DNA of 64,000 bases, from positions 96,689 through 160,688 of the forward strand of contig CALRAJ010000001.1 in the NCBI GenBank assembly GCA_943350765.1, written 5' to 3'. The notes below the pieces were generated by a model. That model was given only the letters and a program-made list of their open reading frames with translations. It did no database searches and was not told where the DNA came from. The stretch comes from Candidatus Tayloriibacteriota bacterium (GTDB lineage Bacteria; Patescibacteriota; Minisyncoccia; Phycocordibacterales; PALSA-1337). Positions 2,615 to 56,401 of the stretch are shown in pieces (the first letter of the stretch is position 1; the number at the start of each line of letters is the position of its first letter). Both the position numbers and the translations under genes were made by a program.

Positions 2615-3355
2615 TTATTTCTTTATAAAACCTTCGAGTGCCTTTAGCGCTTCAACAGGTACCATGTAGACTACTGTATTACTCTGGTCAGACGACATGT
2701 CGTTTATTGACTGGAGTGTTCGAAGGTGGAGAGCGCCTGGGGTTTTTGCAAGCATCTCAGCAGCCTTGGCGATATTTTCTGATGCAGCGAGCTCACCCTC
2801 TGAGTTTATTATCACTGCTCGTTTTTCACGCTCAGCTTCTGCCTGCTTACCGATAGTTCTTTCCATTTCCGCTGGTAGACTAACATCTTTGAGTTCAACA
2901 TTTTGTACTTTCAGACCCCACGCATCAGTTTCTTTGTCGACAATCTCTCGTATTCTGTCCGCAATCTTATCTCGGCTTGAAAGAAGCTCGTCTAGGGTTA
3001 CTTCACCGACAATATTTCTCATGGTTGTCTGGGCGTATTGAGATATGGCATATTTAAAATCCTCTACTTCGACAATAGCTTTGTTGGCATCGCTCACCTT
3101 GTAATATATAACTGCGTTTACACGAACAGTAACATTGTCTCTGGTAATCGCATTTTGATCTGGCACATCTACAGCCTTTGTTCTTACATCCACTTTCTGA
3201 TAGCTTTGAATAACTGGCCAGACGATTCTCCAGCCAGGCTCCATGATAGAAGTAAACTTACCAAAGGTAAATTTTACCCCTCGCTCATATTGATTTATCT
3301 GACGAATACTGGTGATAATCAAAAAAGCAATTATTCCTAAAATTGTATAGAACAT
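2615..3355 (-). CDS. SPFH/band-7 (stomatin/prohibitin-like) protein
   Basis: 246 aa. An N-terminal TM is followed by an SPFH core (VDVRTKAVDVPDQNAITRDNVTVRVNAVIYYKV) and a coiled-coil A/E-rich tail. Confidence 0.85.
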   Translation of the reverse strand: MFYTILGIIAFLIITSIRQINQYERGVKFTFGKFTSIMEPGWRIVWPVIQSYQKVDVRTKAVDVPDQNAITRDNVTVRVNAVIYYKVSDANKAIVEVEDFKYAISQYAQTTMRNIVGEVTLDELLSSRDKIADRIREIVDKETDAWGLKVQNVELKDVSLPAEMERTIGKQAEAEREKRAVIINSEGELAASENIAKAAEMLAKTPGALHLRTLQSINDMSSDQSNTVVYMVPVEALKALEGFIKK

Positions 3356-6390: not shown

Positions 6391-8103
6391 ATGACCCAAA
6401 AGGAAGCACTCTCGTTTTTAAAAATTGGAGCAAATGTTTTTCTGACAGGGGAGCCTGGGTCGGGTAAAACTCATACTATCAACGAGTATGTAAAATATCT
6501 CCGTTCCCACGGTATCGAGCCCGCCATTACCGCTTCGACCGGTATCGCTTCGACACACATCGGGGGCATGACAATACATGCCTGGAGCGGTATCGGTATC
6601 AAAAAGTTTTTATCTGAAAATGATCTCGACGAGCTGTGTCAGAGGGAGCGACTCGTCTCTAGAGTGTCAAAAACCAAAGTACTTATAATTGACGAGATTT
6701 CGATGCTAGACGCCCAGACACTCACGGCAGTAGATATGGCGTGTAAGGCACTAAGGCGTCGTGAAGAGCCTTTTGGGGGCATGCAGGTGGTCTTTGTGGG
6801 TGATTTCTTTCAGCTCCCACCGGTAAACAGGGCTGGGCAGGATGTATCACTTTTTGCCTATCTAGCTCCTATTTGGCAGGAAACAATGCCGATAGTGTGC
6901 TATCTTTCCGAACAGCATCGTACTGAGGACGCCAGTTTTCTCAAATTTCTTTCAGCAATACGCAGTGGGGAAATTACTGAAGATGTTCACGCGACTTTGC
7001 AAGCACGCATTACTACTAAAACTGAACATGGCAATGCTACTCGACTCTACGCTCATAATGTAAATGTAGATCGGGTAAACATCGAAAAATTAAACGCCCT
7101 CACACATACAGGTAGGACTTTTTCAATGTCTGCTCGAGGCGGAGAATATTCTATCGAGTCATTGAAAAAAAGTTGCTTGTCTCCCGAATCGCTTTCTCTC
7201 AAAGTCGGTGCGCAGGTCATGTTTACTAAAAATGTTTTTGAGTCGGGGTATGTGAACGGGACCCTCGGCGAGGTGGAAAGCTTTACTGCGAGTGGTGATC
7301 CAGTCGTGCGGACGAAAAAGGGGAAGCGTATACAGGTTGCACCACAAGATTGGACGATGAGTGACGGCTCACGGATCCTCGCGACCATCTCTCAAATACC
7401 GCTTCGTCTCGCTTGGGCTATCACCGTACACAAAAGCCAGGGCATGACACTCGATGAGGCGACGATTGACCTACGAGAGGCTTTTGAATATGGTCAGGGG
7501 TATGTCGCGCTTTCTCGTGTGCGGTCTTTTTCTGGACTTTCGCTTTTGGGCTACAATGCTCGCGCACTTGAGGTGCATCCAGAGGTGGCATCTGTCGATA
7601 GTCAGTTTAAAGAAGCGTCATTGAAGGCGGAAAATTCGCTCGACAAGATCGTTGAAGCTGAGCAGATCAAACTCGAGCATAATTTTATCCACGCCTGTGG
7701 TGGCAGTGTTGACCCAAGTAAGGTTAAAAAGAAAAAAAGTAAATCTGCGGGGGGATTTGGTGTTGCAAAAGTCAGTACCTATGATCAAACCCTCTCACTT
7801 TGCAAAGATGGTAAGAATGTTGATGAAATTACAAAATTACGTAATGTTACAAAAGGCACTATTATTGGTCATCTCGAAACTCTTTTTATGCGGGGGGATT
7901 TAGGTATTGATGTGATCAAGAAAATCATACCAAAAGAGTTAGTCCCTCAGATTCCAAAAATCAGCGAAGCATTTATCGAATTAAAAACAGAAATTTTGAC
8001 CCCCGTATTCGAAAAGCTTGGTAGCAAAGTACCTTTTGAAGACCTCCGTCTCGTGCGATTATATATGATGGCGGAGAGGGTAAAGATAGGGAAAAAAGAG
8101 TAA
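6391..8103 (+). CDS. PIF1/RecD-family ATP-dependent DNA helicase with C-terminal HTH domain
   Basis: Walker A GEPGSGKT, VFVGDFFQLPPV, and ITVHKSQGMTLDEA (Pif1 motif V). The C-terminal helix-turn-helix (DEITKLRNVTKGTIIGHLETL) is typical of bacterial Pif1. Confidence 0.85.
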   Translation: MTQKEALSFLKIGANVFLTGEPGSGKTHTINEYVKYLRSHGIEPAITASTGIASTHIGGMTIHAWSGIGIKKFLSENDLDELCQRERLVSRVSKTKVLIIDEISMLDAQTLTAVDMACKALRRREEPFGGMQVVFVGDFFQLPPVNRAGQDVSLFAYLAPIWQETMPIVCYLSEQHRTEDASFLKFLSAIRSGEITEDVHATLQARITTKTEHGNATRLYAHNVNVDRVNIEKLNALTHTGRTFSMSARGGEYSIESLKKSCLSPESLSLKVGAQVMFTKNVFESGYVNGTLGEVESFTASGDPVVRTKKGKRIQVAPQDWTMSDGSRILATISQIPLRLAWAITVHKSQGMTLDEATIDLREAFEYGQGYVALSRVRSFSGLSLLGYNARALEVHPEVASVDSQFKEASLKAENSLDKIVEAEQIKLEHNFIHACGGSVDPSKVKKKKSKSAGGFGVAKVSTYDQTLSLCKDGKNVDEITKLRNVTKGTIIGHLETLFMRGDLGIDVIKKIIPKELVPQIPKISEAFIELKTEILTPVFEKLGSKVPFEDLRLVRLYMMAERVKIGKKE

Positions 8104-9305: not shown

Positions 9306-9323
9306 CAGACCTTATCTACACAG

Positions 9324-9350
9324 CTCGTGAGCAATCACGAGTTTTTTATT
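9324..9350 (+). terminator. Rho-independent terminator
   Basis: ctcgtga-gcaa-tcacgag followed by tttttta. Confidence 0.6.
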
Positions 9351-9357
9351 TAATTTG

Positions 9358-9386
9358 ACAAAATAACCCATAGGGTGTATAATAGT
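9358..9386 (+). promoter_or_regulatory. Near-consensus sigma70 promoter
   Basis: TTGACA, 17 nt, TATAAT (ttgacaaaataacccatagggtgtataat), about 290 nt upstream of the DEAD-box helicase start. Confidence 0.6.
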
Positions 9387-12387: not shown

Positions 12388-12416
12388 TAATCGTATTAAA
12401 TGGCTCATCAAAGCCG

Positions 12417-12454
12417 TTTGAACGGCTCAACAGGGCTGTTGAGCCGTTCAAACT
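12417..12454. repeat. REP-like perfect palindrome (family F1)
   Basis: gtttgaacggctcaacag-ggc-tgttgagccgttcaaac; related copies at 38550 and 47107. Confidence 0.8.
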
Positions 12455-12869: not shown

Positions 12870-12911
12870 ATAATTTTGTAAAATTAACTAACTAAATAAT
12901 TACTAATTTAA

Positions 12912-13076
12912 TCCCAAATTACAAAATACTGTCGCAGGCGTATCTTTTTGAAAGACTTCGGAGGCGGGTAGCCGAGACTTGAGAGATTTTCTAGTAAGAA
13001 AATACAAGGGCTTCGTCTACAGATGCCTATCCCTAACCGATAGGCTTCAAAAAGATATGCCAAGAAAGGTATTTTG
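12912..13076 (+). mobile_element. MITE-like repeat copy A with perfect 16-17 bp terminal inverted repeats
   Basis: TIRs cccaaattacaaaatac / gtattttgtaatttggg. Internal conserved core cgcaggcgtatctttttgaaag...ggcgggtagccgagact...aaaaagatatgccaagaaagg. Confidence 0.7.
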
Positions 13077-13100
13077 TAATTTGGGATAACTTACTTCCCA

Positions 13101-20194: not shown

Positions 20195-20236
20195 GATACA
20201 CGGTGGTTTTGTAATAATCTTTGGCAAATCTAAATA

Positions 20237-20378
20237 CCCCGAATTACGAAATGCCTTTCTTGGCATATCTTTTCGAGGGTACGGATAAAAGTTTACTAAC
20301 TTTTTCCTGAAATCTCGGCTACCCGCCTGCGAACCCCCTCGAAAAGATACGCCTGCGACGACATTTCGTAATTCGGGG
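20237..20378 (-). mobile_element. MITE-like repeat copy B with perfect 17-bp TIRs
   Basis: TIRs ccccgaattacgaaatg / catttcgtaattcgggg, with internal ctcggctacccgcc and aaaagatacgcctgcgacg. It is the reverse complement of copy A. Confidence 0.7.
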
Positions 20379-20443
20379 TAAATAAAAAATAGCGTTGGGT
20401 GAAAATCACCCTCGGCTGTTGTGTATTAAATATGAACCTTTTC

Positions 20444-22716: not shown

Positions 22717-24048
22717 ATGATCATGCGTCTGTTTTGGAGTGTGTTAACTGGTGTCATGCTCGGGGTTGCAGTAGTCGGTTTCCAGCAGTGGTGGCTACGG
22801 CGTTCAGGCACCACCATGCCTCGGTGGGCAAAGGTTTGCTCAGTACTGGCGTTGTTGGTTGGGTGTCTGTGTTTGTACTTTGCCATCAAGTCAATGATGT
22901 ATATGGCAACTCCAACTCCACCGTCATTGGCACTTCCTGTGCCGCCGGCTCCTCCCACAGTGCCATCTACACCGTCGCCGTTCGACTTAACCCCACCACC
23001 GTCGGCTCCTCCCTCACCGCCGTTTACACCGGCTCCGCCACTGGCTAAGCCTCCGTCGGATTTACCCCCGACTCAGCCGCAGGCGCCGTTGGCACCTCCC
23101 GCACCTCCTGTCGCTCCGCCTGCTCGCGTAAAAGCGACGCCGGCGGATAACCTTCAGTCGGCACTCGTAAAGGGGCTGATTGAGGAGCGAAAAGAGAGTG
23201 ACGCTCGAGCGATGGTTCTACTCGAAGCGGGGATCGCGAGCTCAAAAACGCAACAAGTCGTTGCCTTTGAGCTACTCCGCGGTGCAGCAGGTCGGCTGGA
23301 TGCCGAAGCGGTGAGGACTGGTTTCGCAACCAGCAACCTCCTTGCATTGCAAGCCTCGATGTTCGACCGACAAAGTCGGGTAGCGGGAAAGGTAGCGACC
23401 GCCAACGGCCTCATGGAAGGATTGGTGGAAGCACGAAAGGCGATGCTCGCTCAAAAGGCTGGGATGACGGTGGTGACGAATATCATCAACCTCAACCCCC
23501 ACATCACGGTGCAACCTGCATCAGTGATCCTGCCTCAGCAGCCAGCACCTCCGGCCTACAATCCGCCGGCCTTGCCCGCAGTTCCTGCGCCACTGACGCT
23601 CCCGAGCCTCTCTGGAGGATCCACGAGTGTGGTACCCAGACAGTCCGCTCCGCCACCCAGCATCTCAGGGTTTGAGCATGGCGTTTACGCCATCACCAAT
23701 CTACACACGAGACAGCTCTCGAAGGGATTGGCAGAGGTGCCTGTAGTCGGTGGTTTGTTCAATAACAAACCCCACTACGGTGGAAAGATCGTGAAAAGGC
23801 AATTCAGGTTGCTGGTAACGGCAAGCACTGAGAACGATATCGACCTTGCCCGTGAAGCCCTCAGGGACTTTACGGAAAAGGACAAAGAGACAAAGCTTCG
23901 GGACAACAACGATATCGTTGACCCTGGCAATCAAGACCAACAAGCTCGTCTCCAGAAGCTCTTTCTGGAAAGTCTTGTCGGTAAGTGGGCAAAGGTGAAA
24001 TCGATGGATCCGAAGCTCACCATGGTCGCTCTGACGGTCATTCCCTGA
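22717..24048 (+). CDS. Hypothetical membrane protein with Pro-rich linker, encoded in a strongly GC-rich (about 60%) island
   Basis: 2 N-terminal TM helices, an 80-aa PxxP-rich region (PPAPPTVPSTPSP...) and a 300-aa C-terminal domain. Composition deviates sharply from the flanks, with many antisense ORFs. Confidence 0.55.
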   Translation: MIMRLFWSVLTGVMLGVAVVGFQQWWLRRSGTTMPRWAKVCSVLALLVGCLCLYFAIKSMMYMATPTPPSLALPVPPAPPTVPSTPSPFDLTPPPSAPPSPPFTPAPPLAKPPSDLPPTQPQAPLAPPAPPVAPPARVKATPADNLQSALVKGLIEERKESDARAMVLLEAGIASSKTQQVVAFELLRGAAGRLDAEAVRTGFATSNLLALQASMFDRQSRVAGKVATANGLMEGLVEARKAMLAQKAGMTVVTNIINLNPHITVQPASVILPQQPAPPAYNPPALPAVPAPLTLPSLSGGSTSVVPRQSAPPPSISGFEHGVYAITNLHTRQLSKGLAEVPVVGGLFNNKPHYGGKIVKRQFRLLVTASTENDIDLAREALRDFTEKDKETKLRDNNDIVDPGNQDQQARLQKLFLESLVGKWAKVKSMDPKLTMVALTVIP

Positions 24049-24182
24049 GGCTTCACAGCCTCGCACGGCACGCATTACACTCCGGTGTAAAGCGTGCTTT
24101 TTTATTTATCACCATATCACCCCACAACATTCCTCGATATTTATAGTTATTTTTGTTATAATCGACAGACACAACATATCTA

Positions 24183-24316
24183 GAATTCATAAATACCGTC
24201 GCAAGCGTATCTTTTTGAAAGACTTCGCAAGGCGGGTAGCCGAGACTGAGAGATTTTCTAGCAAGAAAATACTCGTGCTTTCAAAAAGATATGCTAAGAA
24301 AGGCATTTAAGAATTC
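24183..24316 (+). mobile_element. MITE-like repeat copy C
   Basis: Bounded by gaattc...gaattc. Contains aataccgtcgcaagcgtatctttttgaaagacttcgcaaggcgggtagccgagact...aaaaagatatgctaagaaaggcattt. Confidence 0.7.
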
Positions 24317-25826: not shown

Positions 25827-25901
25827 GTAAATTGGCCCAAATTACAAAACACCACCACAAGTATTTTATAATTTTACTTAAAATGCTATAGTATTTCTGC
25901 T

Positions 25902-26949: not shown

Positions 26950-26979
26950 TTGACAAAAGTAAAGGAAGGTGCTATAATG
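26950..26979 (+). promoter_or_regulatory. Consensus sigma70 promoter
   Basis: TTGACA, 17 nt, TATAAT (ttgacaaaagtaaaggaaggtgctataat). Confidence 0.55.
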
Positions 26980-28391: not shown

Positions 28392-28447
28392 ATCACCTAA
28401 TAATACTAAATCTAGCTCAAAATACTAGCCTACACAGCAAATTACTA

Positions 28448-28734
28448 AATGCGTTGAAGGCATATCTTTTAAATGGACTTCGCAGGTCGACGAGCGAAGG
28501 CGAGGAAGATACTGTAGCTACCAAGATACATGTGCATGGGTAGCCCCGCCATTCGTGAGTATACTACGGCGTGGCACGCGAGATTTCAGGAAAAAATTAC
28601 CAAATTTTTATCCGTACCCCGTCTACAGGTGTCTATCCATAACTGATAGACCTTTAAAAGATATGCCAAGAAAGGTCGATCGTTTGTGATCGACACCTGT
28701 AGACGGTATTTTGTAATTTGGGGTATTTATAAAA
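28448..28734 (+). mobile_element. MITE-like repeat copy D (long variant with internal insertion)
   Basis: The right TIR tattttgtaatttgggg is identical to copy A and the left end is degenerate. Shares cgcgagatttcaggaaaaa...ttatccgtacc with copy B. Confidence 0.65.
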
Positions 28735-31574: not shown

Positions 31575-31617
31575 CCAACGGCTCACTAGTTTTGAGATAA
31601 AACCAGTGAGCCGTTGG
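31575..31617. repeat. REP-like palindrome (family F2: aacggctcactggtttt...aaaaccagtgagccgtt)
   Basis: ccaacggctcactagttttgagataaaaccagtgagccgttgg; a relative is at 56330. Confidence 0.75.
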
Positions 31618-31720: not shown

Positions 31721-32422
31721 TTACCACCCCTTTTCCTTTAGTCCATTTTCTGCGGCTTTCTGCTCTGCTTCCTGTTTTGAGGGTCCTTCTCCAATCGCCA
31801 CCTGAACATCACCCAAAAATACTCCTAGCGTAAATACTTTGTCATGATCTGGACCTTCCTCGCGAAGAGTTTTGTAAGCTGGTGTTACACCGATTTTATC
31901 CTGTGCCTGCTCCTGAAAACGACTCTTTGCATCGAGCCATGTTTTATTCTTTACAATACTAGCAATGTCTATCAAATCAAATAAATTGCGTCTAATAAAG
32001 TCTTTGACAGCATCATAGCCTGCATCTACATACAAAGCACCGATTACCGCCTCAAAAGTATCCGCGAGAATAATCTGTCTAGCTCTGCCCATATCTTTTG
32101 CCTCACCTTTTGACAAAAGCAAGTAATCATTTATATCTAGGCTGGTCGAGGCTCTAGCCAAGCTAAGTGTATTTACCAATGCTGAACGATACGAGGTTAG
32201 ATCACCTTCTGTCTTGTCAGGATATTTTTTATATAAATAGTCTGTGGATACTAGTTCAAGTACAGCATCACCGAGGAACTCTAGGCGCTCGTTGTGAGAC
32301 ATTTTTAGACCTTTATTTTCATTCAAATATGAACGATGGGTAAAAGCTTGTATTAAAAGATTTTTATTTGTAAAAGTTATCCCTGCTTTTTTTTCGAATA
32401 CCGAAATATCTGTAGTTGCCAT
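31721..32422 (-). CDS. rnc: Ribonuclease III
   Basis: Signature ERLEFLGDAVLE plus a C-terminal dsRBD. Confidence 0.9.
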   Translation of the reverse strand: MATTDISVFEKKAGITFTNKNLLIQAFTHRSYLNENKGLKMSHNERLEFLGDAVLELVSTDYLYKKYPDKTEGDLTSYRSALVNTLSLARASTSLDINDYLLLSKGEAKDMGRARQIILADTFEAVIGALYVDAGYDAVKDFIRRNLFDLIDIASIVKNKTWLDAKSRFQEQAQDKIGVTPAYKTLREEGPDHDKVFTLGVFLGDVQVAIGEGPSKQEAEQKAAENGLKEKGW

Positions 32423-33619: not shown

Positions 33620-33865
33620 TAGTATATAGGGTTTTATAAAAATAGCAAGCGCCATACAGGAGCCATACAGGAGCCATGACTTGTGGCGGGAGTACTAAAG
33701 CTCAACAGAGCGTAGTACTGGTGGCGAAGATGCTGAGTTTAGCGAAACGAAGTGCAAAGAGCTTAGCAAAGCGAATGTGCAAGAGCTGTAACCATTTATT
33801 TGTGTAAAAATCAATAATTTAGAGCAAATTTACCGATTTTACAATATGCCTCAACATAGCCATTC
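33620..33865. repeat. Composite repeated leader element upstream of rpmF (copy L1), ending in an F3 palindrome
   Basis: Shares gcaagcgcca, agagcgtagt, gcaaagagc.tagcaa.gcg and a terminal catcggctaaac.ccgtgtttagccgatgaaaaa with the element upstream of rplU (53095-53345). It contains the tandem gccatacaggagccatacaggagccatgac. Confidence 0.6.
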
Positions 33866-33896
33866 TCATCGGCTAAACACCGTGTTTAGCCGATGA
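33866..33896. repeat. REP-like palindrome (family F3)
   Basis: tcatcggctaaacaccgtgtttagccgatga. Confidence 0.75.
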
Positions 33897-33913
33897 AAAA
33901 TGCATGAATTGTC

Positions 33914-37849: not shown

Positions 37850-37931
37850 GTTTATTTATTATTTTGTTTATCTACGCTTCGCTCCAATATCTATCTATTC
37901 TAGACTACGCTCGTGCCTATAACGCGTCTTA

Positions 37932-38324
37932 CTAGACCGTCACATTCGCTCTAATAAGCTCAGTACTCCCGCCACAAGTCATGGCTCCTGTATCTTCCTC
38001 GCCTACGCTCGTCGACATTCTACAAATCTCTTCGAAATGCTTTTCTAGAAGTGGTTGTATTGAAAGCCGATTTCCCACTTGCGTGACCGGGACACCATTA
38101 AGCCGAGGATTGGCCTTGATTAGGGATATTGAAACTGGATTTTTAAATTTCTCAACAAAAACCATATCTACCTGCATCCAAATAGGATTTTCCTCTGTAG
38201 ATTTAGGATCAAAGTGATCATCCTTTGGATCCATCGCAGTGGTATCGGGATATGCTCCACTACCGACTTTTACTACTCCGACCGCTGAGGGAGGATTGAC
38301 ACTCGAATGATAGAAAATCACCAA
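37932..38324 (-). pseudogene. N-terminally truncated EVE (PUA-like) domain protein fragment
   Basis: VIFYHSSVNPPSAVGVVKVGSGAYPDTTA...DPKS...RLSIQPL matches the EVE core, but the canonical N-terminus (about 40 aa, YWLMKSEP) is missing. Only a GTG/TTG start 4 codons after a stop is available. The 3' end overlaps a repeat copy. Confidence 0.4.
37961..37993. repeat. 33-nt exact inverted copy (L3) of a segment of the rpmF leader element
   Basis: cagtactcccgccacaagtcatggctcctgtat is the reverse complement of 33655-33687. Confidence 0.7.
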
Positions 38325-38549
38325 ATCCCCCTAAAACAATTTTTACTAAAAATGTTCGGGCGACCAAATTAGTAAATTTGGTTTAGCCACACATCCCATC
38401 ACGCATAAAATTCCTCGCCTGATAATTTCGTACCCCACCCCATGCAGTCTTTTTGTCTCGCTTTAAGTCATCTATTGAGTAGCATGTCGGCTCGCTTTTT
38501 ATCAACCAATAGTTTTTCATGGAATATAGTATAGCATGACCACCCTAAT

Positions 38550-38579
38550 CAACGGCTCAACAGGGCTGTTGAGCCGTTG
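38550..38579. repeat. REP-like palindrome (family F1)
   Basis: caacggctcaacagggctgttgagccgttg. Confidence 0.8.
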
Positions 38580-38717
38580 GAATCTTACTTAAAAAATTGT
38601 TTGACACCCACACAATACCGTGATAACATGCACCTCGGCTCTGTTCCTTGATAGTGTGAGGAATTGAGAAAAAATTCATACAGTAAACATTTCAATCGTG
38701 AAAGGTGTGGTGATAAT

Positions 38718-39347: not shown

Positions 39348-39524
39348 ATGACCCAACACAGCCTGCCAGTTACTCTCCTAGTAGCTCGGCTCGCTTTTTT
39401 ATTTAATCAGTATTATATTGTGAAATCATCCCCGAATTTTCAGTAGAAAATTCGGGGATTGACTTCATAACTCTTTTAATGATATTATATCCATCTAAGG
39501 CCTTTGGGCTCTATTTTTAATTAT

Positions 39525-46882: not shown

Positions 46883-47106
46883 GGGTATAGTATAGCAAAA
46901 GTATTCAGATGTTGGAGTGGATAACAATAAGAAAAAATATATGATTTACTACCATATCGTAGTAAATCAATAATACAAACATACACAAATACTAGACGGT
47001 CGCATATTATTTGTGTATTTTTTCAAAAAGATAAACTCCTAAAAGGCTTGAGGAGCTGAGGCGAGAACGGTCTAGCAAGACGCGTTACATAGGGCGAAAA
47101 GCTAGG

Positions 47107-47142
47107 TTTGAACGGCTCAACAGCCCTGTTGAGCCGTTGAAA
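47107..47142. repeat. REP-like palindrome (family F1)
   Basis: tttgaacggctcaacagccctgttgagccgttgaaa. Confidence 0.8.
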
Positions 47143-51615: not shown

Positions 51616-51758
51616 AAGCTCAGCAACAAGTGTTTTACTAAAGTGGTCTATGTTGGCTTAATTTTCCTTAACCCCCGATTTTTCTACTGAAAAATCGGGG
51701 GGCTTCCTCATCCCACCGCTCTACAGAGCCATTAATCACCCACCACATCCACAAAACT

Positions 51759-53094: not shown

Positions 53095-53345
53095 TAAATC
53101 CCAAATAAGTGCAAGCGCCAATTTATAAGGAGCGGAGCGACTTTATAAATTGTGCGTACCGAGGTATTTCCCTCGGTATCGGCCAATAGAGCGAAGCAAC
53201 CTTATGGTTTTTGTATTCTAAGCTCACCAGAGCGTAGTGCAAAGAGCCTAGCAAGGCGTAGGGCAAACAGATAGAGTCACCGAATGTACTGATTTCAGTA
53301 AAGCCATTTTCATCGGCTAAACCCCGTGTTTAGCCGATGAAAAAA
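53095..53345. repeat. Composite repeated leader element upstream of rplU (copy L2), ending in an F3 palindrome
   Basis: Shares motifs with 33620-33896. It contains the hairpin accgagg-tatttc-cctcggt and the terminal palindrome tcatcggctaaaccccgtgtttagccgatga (53309-53340). Confidence 0.6.
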
Positions 53346-56329: not shown

Positions 56330-56370
56330 CAACGGCTCACTGGTTTTAAAGCGAAACCAGTGAGCCGTTG
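56330..56370. repeat. REP-like palindrome (family F2)
   Basis: caacggctcactggttttaaagcgaaaccagtgagccgttg. Confidence 0.75.
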
Positions 56371-56401
56371 GACTGAAATAAGCCTGTGTTTATGGGTGTT
56401 T

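Follow-up and report, generated by a model that had tools for sequence, protein, structure and literature searches.

Patescibacteria have some of the smallest and most gene-dense of bacterial genomes, and are thought to be poor in repetitive or selfish DNA. We asked what a non-coding repeat represents that occurs five times in 64,000 nucleotides of a Candidatus Tayloriibacteriota contig (the whole stretch analysed, hereafter the window). The window is an ordinary bacterial chromosome segment (~40% G+C) with genes for DnaE, DnaB, GltX, BipA, RNase III, a MacB-type exporter and a type I restriction system. A first-pass annotation, made from the letters alone, had offered two readings of the repeat: a MITE-like, non-autonomous transposable element, or a family of structured-RNA genes.

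Copies in the window

All five repeats were confirmed by direct reading, by alignment, by a repeat finder (families D2, D3, D7, D8, D13, D15 and I1–I19) and by R1, a covariance model built on 16 copies. R1 detected copies A–E in the window and nothing else (E-values 2e-11 to 5e-34). The copies are imperfect palindromes of 130–285 nt with 49–87% pairwise identity, and once put in one orientation they could be aligned over their whole length. The features are listed below. The strand given for each copy is the one carrying the asymmetric core, R2 is a covariance model of the apex only, and P3 and P4 are the apical helices of the fold described in the next section.

9355–9383: 12/12 promoter-like site before copy E, which lies between this site and the helicase start codon
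9522–9652, minus strand: copy E; R1 148.7 bits
9552–9622: apex of copy E, found by R2
9681: start codon of the DEAD-box helicase gene; copy E lies in the leader of this gene, antisense to it
12909–12911 and 13087–13089: TAA on both sides of copy A
12912–13086, plus strand: copy A, a complete element whose 17-bp termini are perfect, TCCCAAATTACAAAATAC / GTATTTTGTAATTTGGGA; R1 125.5 bits
12948–13019, plus strand: apex of copy A, a three-way junction with P3 (GGC-GGGUA-GCC) and P4; R2 58.5 bits
13025–13045, plus strand: extra hairpin of copy A
20231–20236: 6-bp direct repeat TAAATA, left of copy B
20237–20378, minus strand (the sense strand): copy B, termini CCCCGAATTACGAAATG / CATTTCGTAATTCGGGG; R1 137.4 bits
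20273–20342: apex of copy B, found by R2
20379–20384: 6-bp direct repeat TAAATA, right of copy B
24134–24162: extended −10 promoter-like site before copy C, which lies in sense orientation in the leader of a DUF456 gene
24183–24316, plus strand: copy C, outer termini partly degenerate; R1 150.2 bits
24215–24284: apex of copy C, found by R2
25836–25874, plus strand: arms-only remnant, CCCAAATTACAAAAC, 10-nt spacer, GTATTTTATAATTT; A/D-type termini, interior absent
28438–28723, plus strand: copy D, a decayed long variant; 60.6 bits with the whole model, R2 33.3 bits
28486–28582: replacement of the P3 loop of copy D by ~100 nt
28631–28651: extra hairpin of copy D, the same as in copy A
31721–32422: rnc gene

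The boundaries first assigned to copies B and C were kept and those of D and E were moved to the positions listed; the end given for copy A (13076) cut off its 3′ arm, the true end being 13086. Perfect terminal inverted repeats of 16–17 bp had been described for the family. They are indeed perfect, at 17 bp, in A and B, but they are partly degenerate in C, and copy D has lost part of its 5′ terminus by truncation. Likewise, exact matches to the supposedly common core (GGCGGGTAGCCGAG) number four, one each in A, B, C and E; D, where the loop has been replaced, has none. As described earlier, the copies are intergenic, lie in both orientations and have no coding capacity.

A 30-nt insert on the 3′ side of copy D includes nearby sequence in inverted form, a signature of template switching. 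The earlier division into sub-families A/C and B/D by a single internal insertion did not survive realignment: A, C and E stand against B and D as covarying apex variants. The extra hairpin is common to A and D, and D has in addition the insert and a rearranged 3′ side. All five copies fall inside 18.9 kb of the 64-kb window (p ~0.03, simulation). One public contig is 100% identical to positions 3101–24324 of the window, and another stops inside copy A, an assembly break at the repeat.

Fold and covariation

The consensus unit is an imperfect palindrome of ~150 nt. From the outside in, it comprises P1 (the termini, with the ancestral form TACCCCGAATTACGAAAT), a 6 × 6 internal loop (5′ strand GUYGAA, 3′ strand GAGAAA), P2 (a second inverted pair, GCGUAUCUUUU.. 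/ ..AAAAGAUAUGC) and a three-way junction with P3 and P4. The junction is strand-asymmetric: the short P3 hairpin is followed by GAGA, then by P4, with an ANCA loop and an A bulged three pairs above its base, and then by CGUGC or CGUAC. On folding, every copy formed a long hairpin (z −5 to −12 against shuffles). The hairpin forms on both strands, slightly better on the sense strand, with the exception of copy D.

The helices covary strongly. With a plain MAFFT alignment, RNAalifold detected compensatory changes in 27 of 40 pairs, an independent check on the alignment of 67 distinct copies, which was itself fitted to the model. In the latter, 94.3% of the cells pair as against 69.3% after shuffling, double changes are found in 39 of the 40 pairs, and the covariation score of 0.67 drops to 0.08–0.15 when the partners are slid; none of 500 shuffles attained any of these measures. 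Nearly all of the pairs top-ranked by mutual information are model pairs, and the same measure adds two further P2 pairs and an isolated covarying pair at 48–73 (C-G/G-C). A non-canonical A·G↔G·A covariation was observed in the junction (47–102), and the internal loop holds a C-G/U-A/U·G covarying pair flanked by potential tandem G·A pairs. The element has no conserved ORF; it is the stems that covary instead.

The apex was found by R2 on one strand only, also on scaffolds whose P2 is unlike GCGUAUCUUUU (L046:5449 and L012:12690), and the junction nucleotides are kept even where the P2 sequence is unrelated. In divergent members the P3 sequence is wholly replaced (GCGC-GACG-GCGC, GUCU-GUCG-AGAC and others), with the hairpin and GAG(A) retained. 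The long variants carry insertions in the P3 loop (copy D, L008:4063 and L005:1186) or an extra hairpin between P4 and P2 (copies A and D, and L025).

The ratio of G·U to A·C mispairs bears on which strand folds. A first count, 143 to 30, was biased upwards by search patterns that held the 5′ strand of P2 constant. The 19 copies that only the model detected give 14 to 3 in P2, 4 to 6 in P1 and 3 to 2 in P4; P1 of the pattern-found copies, where P1 was unconstrained, gives 25 to 10. The sense strand is moderately preferred as the folding strand, mainly in P2, and the excess of G·U there is compatible with a sense RNA or a sense single-stranded DNA. A purely double-stranded role is made less likely by the conserved, asymmetric apex.

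Extent, gene context and turnover

A collection of 185,579 species, one genome each, was scanned with the pattern TATCTTTT, a gap of 8–22 nt and GGCGGGTAGCCGAG. It yielded 11 loci, several of them from one and the same genome and all 11 labelled Patescibacteria, Parcubacteria, Saccharibacteria or Zambryskiibacteria; a metagenome scan added 35 loci. With R1, the sense strand matched 70 times across the window and 46 loci, 47 sequences in all (E-values 2e-11 to 3e-36), and the opposite-strand mirror matches scored ~100 bits lower. In some cases one 14-kb locus contains three or four copies. Five MacB-anchored contigs of other Patescibacteria (89 kb), chosen blind to the element, had a single copy between them, so the distribution is patchy and the window comparatively rich. 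The nearest MacB homologues belong to Magasanikbacteria, Wolfebacteria and other Parcubacteria.

Rfam 15 returned nothing over any copy at its gathering score, and no overlap with any copy at E ≤ 10 in a 20-kb scan; the copies searched singly gave chance matches to miRNA precursors, snoRNAs and sRNAs (E > 1). The pattern scan of viral contigs gave 0 loci, the phage and plasmid collections held no match to the element, and nothing relevant was found in the full-text literature on repeats or structured RNAs of Patescibacteria or the CPR.

The copies fill tight intergenic spacers, usually with 0–40 nt to each neighbouring gene. Both neighbours could be called for 65 copies. Those between co-directional genes comprise 33 antisense and 19 sense copies (p = 0.07); a further 9 have divergent and 4 convergent neighbours. 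Model scores of sense and antisense copies are equal (p = 0.77). Among the ~490 ORFs of the fetched loci, no neighbouring protein family recurred beyond local synteny. Over the 67 copies, upstream −10-like boxes showed no positional enrichment in sense relative to antisense, and a T-run comes after only 5 of them when read in sense and after 4 when read in antisense. The absence of promoter and terminator signals, together with unrelated neighbours, indicates that the copies are neither independent transcription units nor leaders of a gene class. Of the structured-RNA reading, the strong covariation, local hairpins included, holds, but that of independent RNA genes does not, for want of a consistent promoter or terminator.

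Comparison of related genomes revealed gain and loss. The spacer between macB and the next gene measures 231 nt in the window, where it contains copy A, and 22–45 nt in four other Patescibacteria with the same macB gene order (L050–L053), where it is empty. The closest relative (L047, MacB 85% identical) ends just past macB and was left out of this comparison. Three contigs with 80–88% identity (L032, L036 and L043, the last equal to L029) were compared at four sites. The first is occupied in all three; the second is filled in L032, empty in L036 and taken by an unrelated ~130-nt insert in L043; the third has a copy only in L032; and the fourth is filled in L043 and empty in L032. These empty and filled sites, like that of copy A, require real insertion or deletion.

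Relative to conserved flanks, the element is inverted at three of six orthologous sites. Sub-family and outer stem are the same on both sides of the L003/L009 flip, and differ in the L032/L043 and L004/L007 flips. We infer that the flips are not assembly artefacts, since the perfect inverted runs are shorter than 20 bp, below usual assembly k-mers. Interiors are exchanged as well. L036 and L043 share a site, orientation and P1. In the distal P2 and in P4 they diverge through paired changes clustered in blocks, which match variants known from other copies. In L001, two copies 1.3 kb apart have identical 95-nt interiors and unrelated outer stems. Flips, interior swaps and the L001 pair fit recombination or template switching between the arms, together with gene conversion between copies. 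Template switching can create and maintain hairpins (PMC8794818).

Persistence was also observed: the L003/L009/L028 site is still occupied among distant relatives, and some sites are occupied, with the fold intact, at 66–75% flank identity. Conservation at orthologous positions, which the first-pass annotation took as a sign of regulatory leaders, is therefore mixed, some sites being occupied across species but with the element flipped or replaced, and others being clear insertions. The element is gained, lost and flipped between related Patescibacteria, and behaves as mobile DNA.

The termini bear out part of the MITE description. An AATTACRAAA arm is common to 19 of the 67 copies (17 loci), and when these are aligned on it both ends read TAC-YYY-R-AATTACRAAAT, with conservation lost outside the TAC. 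The stop at TAC indicates that the inverted termini belong to the element, and allows an ancestral form to be stated. Gain and loss between genomes, these sub-family termini and the 6-bp repeat around copy B agree with a MITE-like, non-autonomous element, but the terminal sequences vary widely, in contrast to the TIRs of a classical element bound by its transposase: in most other copies the arms are quite different, yet complementary. Folded by themselves, the arms average −1.7 and −1.6 kcal/mol (z 0.17 and −0.16); they are not palindromic, and the element is therefore not a REP doublet.

Target-site duplications, which had been suggested as a check, gave a divided result. A general test for flanking direct repeats on all 67 copies showed no signal, but where the terminal motif sets the boundary, 3 of 15 copies have perfect repeats of 6–7 bp (~0.3 expected): copy B (TAAATA), L005, the top-scoring copy overall (TATTATA), and L006, with the second-best score (TATTTTA). 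Copy A has TAA. The three repeats are alike and AT-rich, so they may reflect a target preference or a terminal direct repeat instead.

The proposed search for an autonomous partner, a transposase with matching termini, found none. No transposase, integrase or reverse transcriptase was seen among the 30 window ORFs scanned, nor any transposase or other partner gene among the ~490 ORFs of the fetched loci. Unpaired 5′ and 3′ halves and solo termini, sought over 560 kb, revealed no ORF-bearing version. This search yielded the weak copy L045 and the remnant at 25836.

Origin and maintenance of the element

These data suggest, at a probability of roughly 0.55, that the repeat is a non-autonomous mobile element of Patescibacteria (a "structured MITE") whose fold is selected at the level of the element. 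A single-stranded folded form, DNA or RNA, would be recognised by a putative trans-acting machinery that copies or inserts it, and selection on the element would maintain the fold because this machinery reads the folded strand. The near-palindromic arms would allow recombination and template switching, by which interiors may be flipped and homogenised. Copies would ride passively in operon transcripts and leaders, where the ~35-bp P1–P2 duplex could serve as a substrate of an RNase III-type enzyme, and copies are left to decay, as seen in copy D and the arms-only remnant. The copies do lie in short AT-rich spacers that have no insert in relatives, in either orientation and beside unrelated genes, and modules have been exchanged among them. 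Several observations count against this reading: no transposase or partner gene was found (30 window ORFs and the neighbours elsewhere), no split copy flanks an ORF, and flanking duplications are absent over all 67 copies. The sites that stay occupied with an intact fold at 66–75% flank identity would also fit a host function, the P2 excess of G·U over A·C in model-only copies marks one folding strand, as in a functional RNA, and the junction nucleotides are kept on scaffolds with unrelated P2.

The main rival, which we regard as possible and distinctly less probable, turns these last points around. The repeat would be a structured RNA family useful to the host, a trans-acting sRNA or a cis element in operon transcripts (processing, stability or protein-binding sites); its many copies would serve a need of the cell at many loci, and its mobility would be incidental. 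Very strong covariation in every helix, P3 and P4 included, would follow directly, as would the conserved junction nucleotides, bulged A and internal-loop motif, the covariation at 47–102 and 48–73, an apex on one strand only, the G·U excess in P2 and the long occupancy of the L003/L009/L028 site; copies C and E, moreover, lie in leaders behind promoter-like sites. Against this, the copies have no promoter or terminator of their own, and P1 shows no G·U excess in the unbiased copies (4 to 6). Orientation is free, if anything antisense (33 to 19), with equal integrity both ways, and the element flips at orthologous sites. Free orientation, flips and the absent promoter together argue against a strand-specific RNA fed by read-through, which should not tolerate inversion. 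The patchy distribution, the want of any gene association, the lineage-specific insertion of copy A and the tolerance of decayed copies (D and the remnant) also speak for the mobile-element reading.

It is improbable that the repeat is an ordinary MITE with terminal inverted repeats and target-site duplications, moved by a DDE transposase, in which a functionless interior acquired its covariation as a by-product of palindrome homogenisation, through template switching from arm to arm or gene conversion. Conserved sub-family termini, 6–7 bp direct repeats in three young-looking copies and insertion polymorphism are what such an element would leave; the inverted neighbouring sequence in copy D is a mark of template switching, a process known to make and keep hairpins (PMC8794818). 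A sequence-specific transposase, however, would not tolerate termini that mostly differ completely yet remain complementary, and no transposase was found in the 30 window ORFs or the fetched loci. The most conserved part is the strand-asymmetric apex, which lies outside any palindrome, persists where P2 is unrelated and shows non-canonical junction covariation.

Two further readings deserve little credence. An invertible DNA switch, in which the arms are invertase sites and a flip of the core alters expression of a neighbour, would account for the differing core orientation in three of six orthologous pairs and for inverted arms around a ~70-bp core. It is very unlikely: the core has no promoter-like sequence on either strand (consensus reading), no invertase gene lies nearby, a double-stranded switch leaves the P3/P4 covariation unexplained, and in two of the three flips the sub-family and the outer stem differ as well, so that these look like replacement. 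We consider a cis-regulatory leader or riboswitch for particular genes the least credible of all, in spite of copies C and E in 5′ leaders and a multi-helix junction that resembles an aptamer, because the copies are not placed in sense upstream of a related gene set: the neighbours are unrelated, copies point either way, usually between co-directional genes and in many cases antisense, no expression platform is seen, and copy A is placed after macB, where relatives have an empty spacer.

Other identities were rejected. Insertion into pre-existing terminator hairpins, an idea that came from the L001 copies, does not hold generally, since there is no hairpin at the empty site of copy A or at that of the second L032 copy. 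Loops resembling those of the hairpin ribozyme (GUC/AGAA, AUAUUC) were discounted by reasoning, the loops lying 15 bp and ~3 bp from the junction and having no Rfam match. Retrons, Y RNAs, SRP, omega RNA and attC each lack a defining feature in the element (for instance, there is no free guide end and there are no R boxes), and neither a reverse transcriptase nor a Ro gene lies nearby.

In its behaviour the element is closest to ERIC, BOX, RUP, Correia-type repeats and REPINs, and it is a member of none of these, nor of any Rfam family. Three things set it apart: a three-way-junction apex, stems that diverge yet stay paired, and its host group. ERIC (or IRU) sequences are imperfect palindromes of ~130–150 nt, strictly intergenic, in either orientation and often inside transcription units; insertions at set internal positions give rise to longer variants, and the sequences are conserved across species. 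No enzyme is known to mobilise them. In all these respects the present element resembles ERIC. In contrast to ERIC, to which it has no sequence relation, it is hosted by Patescibacteria, its apex is a strand-asymmetric three-way junction, and far more of the stem divergence is compensated.

Correia elements and RUP have inverted termini and short duplications. Copies of BOX, RUP, SPRITE and Correia repeats are close in sequence within a genome, with conserved termini. In our element, unlike BOX, RUP and Correia, most termini differ and are complementary, the interior is conserved and no IS partner is known. The pneumococcal BOX, RUP and SPRITE repeats are, like it, small, non-coding, highly structured and interspersed; a patchy distribution and polymorphic insertion sites led to their being judged parasitic, and they are transcribed together with their neighbours (PMC3049150).

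REPINs, which are hairpin-forming, extragenic and non-autonomous, as is our element, are believed to work in single-stranded form (ssDNA or mRNA) and to be long-lived (PMC3116915). Unlike those of REPINs, the arms of the present element are not REP palindromes, and its spacer is a conserved structured apex rather than a variable sequence; no RAYT gene was seen near the copies of the fetched loci (~490 ORFs).

Integron attC sites and the end hairpins of IS200/IS605 elements (IS608) conserve a fold over a sequence, with bulged bases. The present element likewise keeps fold rather than sequence and has a bulged base, which suggests recognition of a folded single strand. It is nevertheless no attC site: it lacks complementary R″/R′ boxes (GTTRRRY), its loop strands GUYGAA and GAGAAA not being complementary, and its copies are dispersed in both orientations rather than arrayed in one orientation beside an integrase; no integrase was seen in the window ORFs scanned or in the fetched loci. 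Unlike IS200/IS605 ends, it has inverted termini.

Tentatively, the conserved apex (three-way junction, bulged-A hairpin, GAGA and CGUGC strands) and the structured internal loop may together be an active module, either the recognition fold of a hitherto undescribed structure-specific mobilisation system of Patescibacteria, acting through single-strand DNA or RNA, or a functional RNA spread as a cassette (a protein scaffold or ribozyme). The significance of the element would rise if the apex turned out to be active as an RNA, or to be what a new mobilisation system of this kind takes hold of.

The presence of a structured element in several Patescibacteria lineages, with turnover among close relatives, means that the intergenic spacers of these genomes are dynamic. 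The element is a ready marker for strain typing and accounts for some assembly breaks. It is also a new and well-supported structured family, with two covariance models available, for databases of RNAs and repeats. Its frequent flips and exchanges of interior at fixed sites offer a clean natural example of palindrome-driven rearrangement. The finding also raises the question of which machinery in such reduced genomes recognises the fold. If the apex and internal loop prove to be an active module, the Candidate Phyla Radiation would harbour either a new class of mobile element that depends on its structure or a widespread RNA class that is likewise new.

Dispersed repeats and palindromes

A second family of non-coding repeats (GTCGACGAGCGNAGGCGAGGAAGATACAGGAGCCATGACTTGTGGCGGGAGTACT...), distinct from the main element, was detected in the window and in a related genome (L047), and had no match in Rfam.

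Copies of the second repeat family
37912-38016 (-), window
33650-33720 (+), window
28486-28518, window, within copy D, the decayed long variant of the main element
L047:1106-1208, related genome

The window and L047 sequences are 83% identical across 103 nt, and the gene context of the L047 copy differs from that in the window. A perfect 32-nt inverted pair of this family (33665-33696 and 37962-37993) brackets rnhB and dnaE, and the insert of copy D begins with the first 33 nt of the repeat.

Several Patescibacteria contigs carry a perfect REP-like hairpin of 28 nt, CCCCGAWTTTTC-AGTA-GAAAAWTCGGGG, which is not followed by a T-run.

Occurrences of the REP-like hairpin
39430-39457 and 51673-51700, window
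L038:10562-10589, Patescibacteria contig
L046:5400-5427 and 6694-6721, Patescibacteria contig

The start of its stem resembles the terminus of the main element (CCCCGAATT), and two occurrences directly adjoin main-element copies. Downstream of recR, the hairpins of the window and L038 are orthologous, with the loop flipped between them.

More families of near-identical terminator-like palindromes are scattered across the window. Stems common to these dispersed palindromes include AACGGCTCA...TGAGCCGTT and CATCGGCTAAAC...GTTTAGCCGATG.

Terminator-like palindromes in the window
12416-12453, 38549-38590 and 47106-47140
31576-31617 and 56330-56371
33863-33899 and 53307-53343

Apex-like modules at L050

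Two tandem units were found at L050:4490-4900, downstream of tRNA-Leu and tRNA-Lys. Each consists of a bidirectional terminator-like hairpin followed by a module like the apex of the main element, with P3 (GCGC-GACG-GCGC) plus GAGA, and P4 with an AGCA loop. The usual P1/P2 arms are missing, and both the whole-element (R1) and the apex-only (R2) covariance models scored these units weakly. A downstream A-run is a potential alternative pairing partner for the hairpin's 3' arm.

Surroundings of the main-element copies

The gene directly upstream of copy C (22717-24048, +) has 51% G+C vs. ∼39% in its surroundings. Its product, a proline-rich protein of 443 aa with PPAPP/PSxPP repeats and an N-terminal membrane anchor, had no match in Pfam.

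Two perfect (12/12) matches to a sigma-70-type promoter (TTGACA, 17 nt, TATAAT) were noted in the window.

Promoter matches
9355-9383 (+), preceded by a terminator-like hairpin (9322-9343)
26950-26978 (+)

From the predicted promoter at 9355-9383, the DEAD-box helicase mRNA would have a leader of ∼290 nt containing copy E in antisense orientation.

The five main-element copies all lie within 9.5-28.7 kb of the window (clustering p ∼0.03). Across 4000-30000, positive GC skew at 4-12 kb gives way to negative skew beyond ∼28 kb. The genes change orientation along with the skew, a pattern like that of a replication terminus.

The main-element repeat breaks assemblies; a public short-read contig (Logan SRR13399486, L049) terminates inside copy A, at window position 13040. 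At L043:5948-6098, an unrelated ∼130-nt insert with small hairpins lies at precisely the intergenic position where L032 carries copy 2 of the main element; in L036, this position is empty. Spacers of these genomes seem to act as hot spots where several small elements occur.
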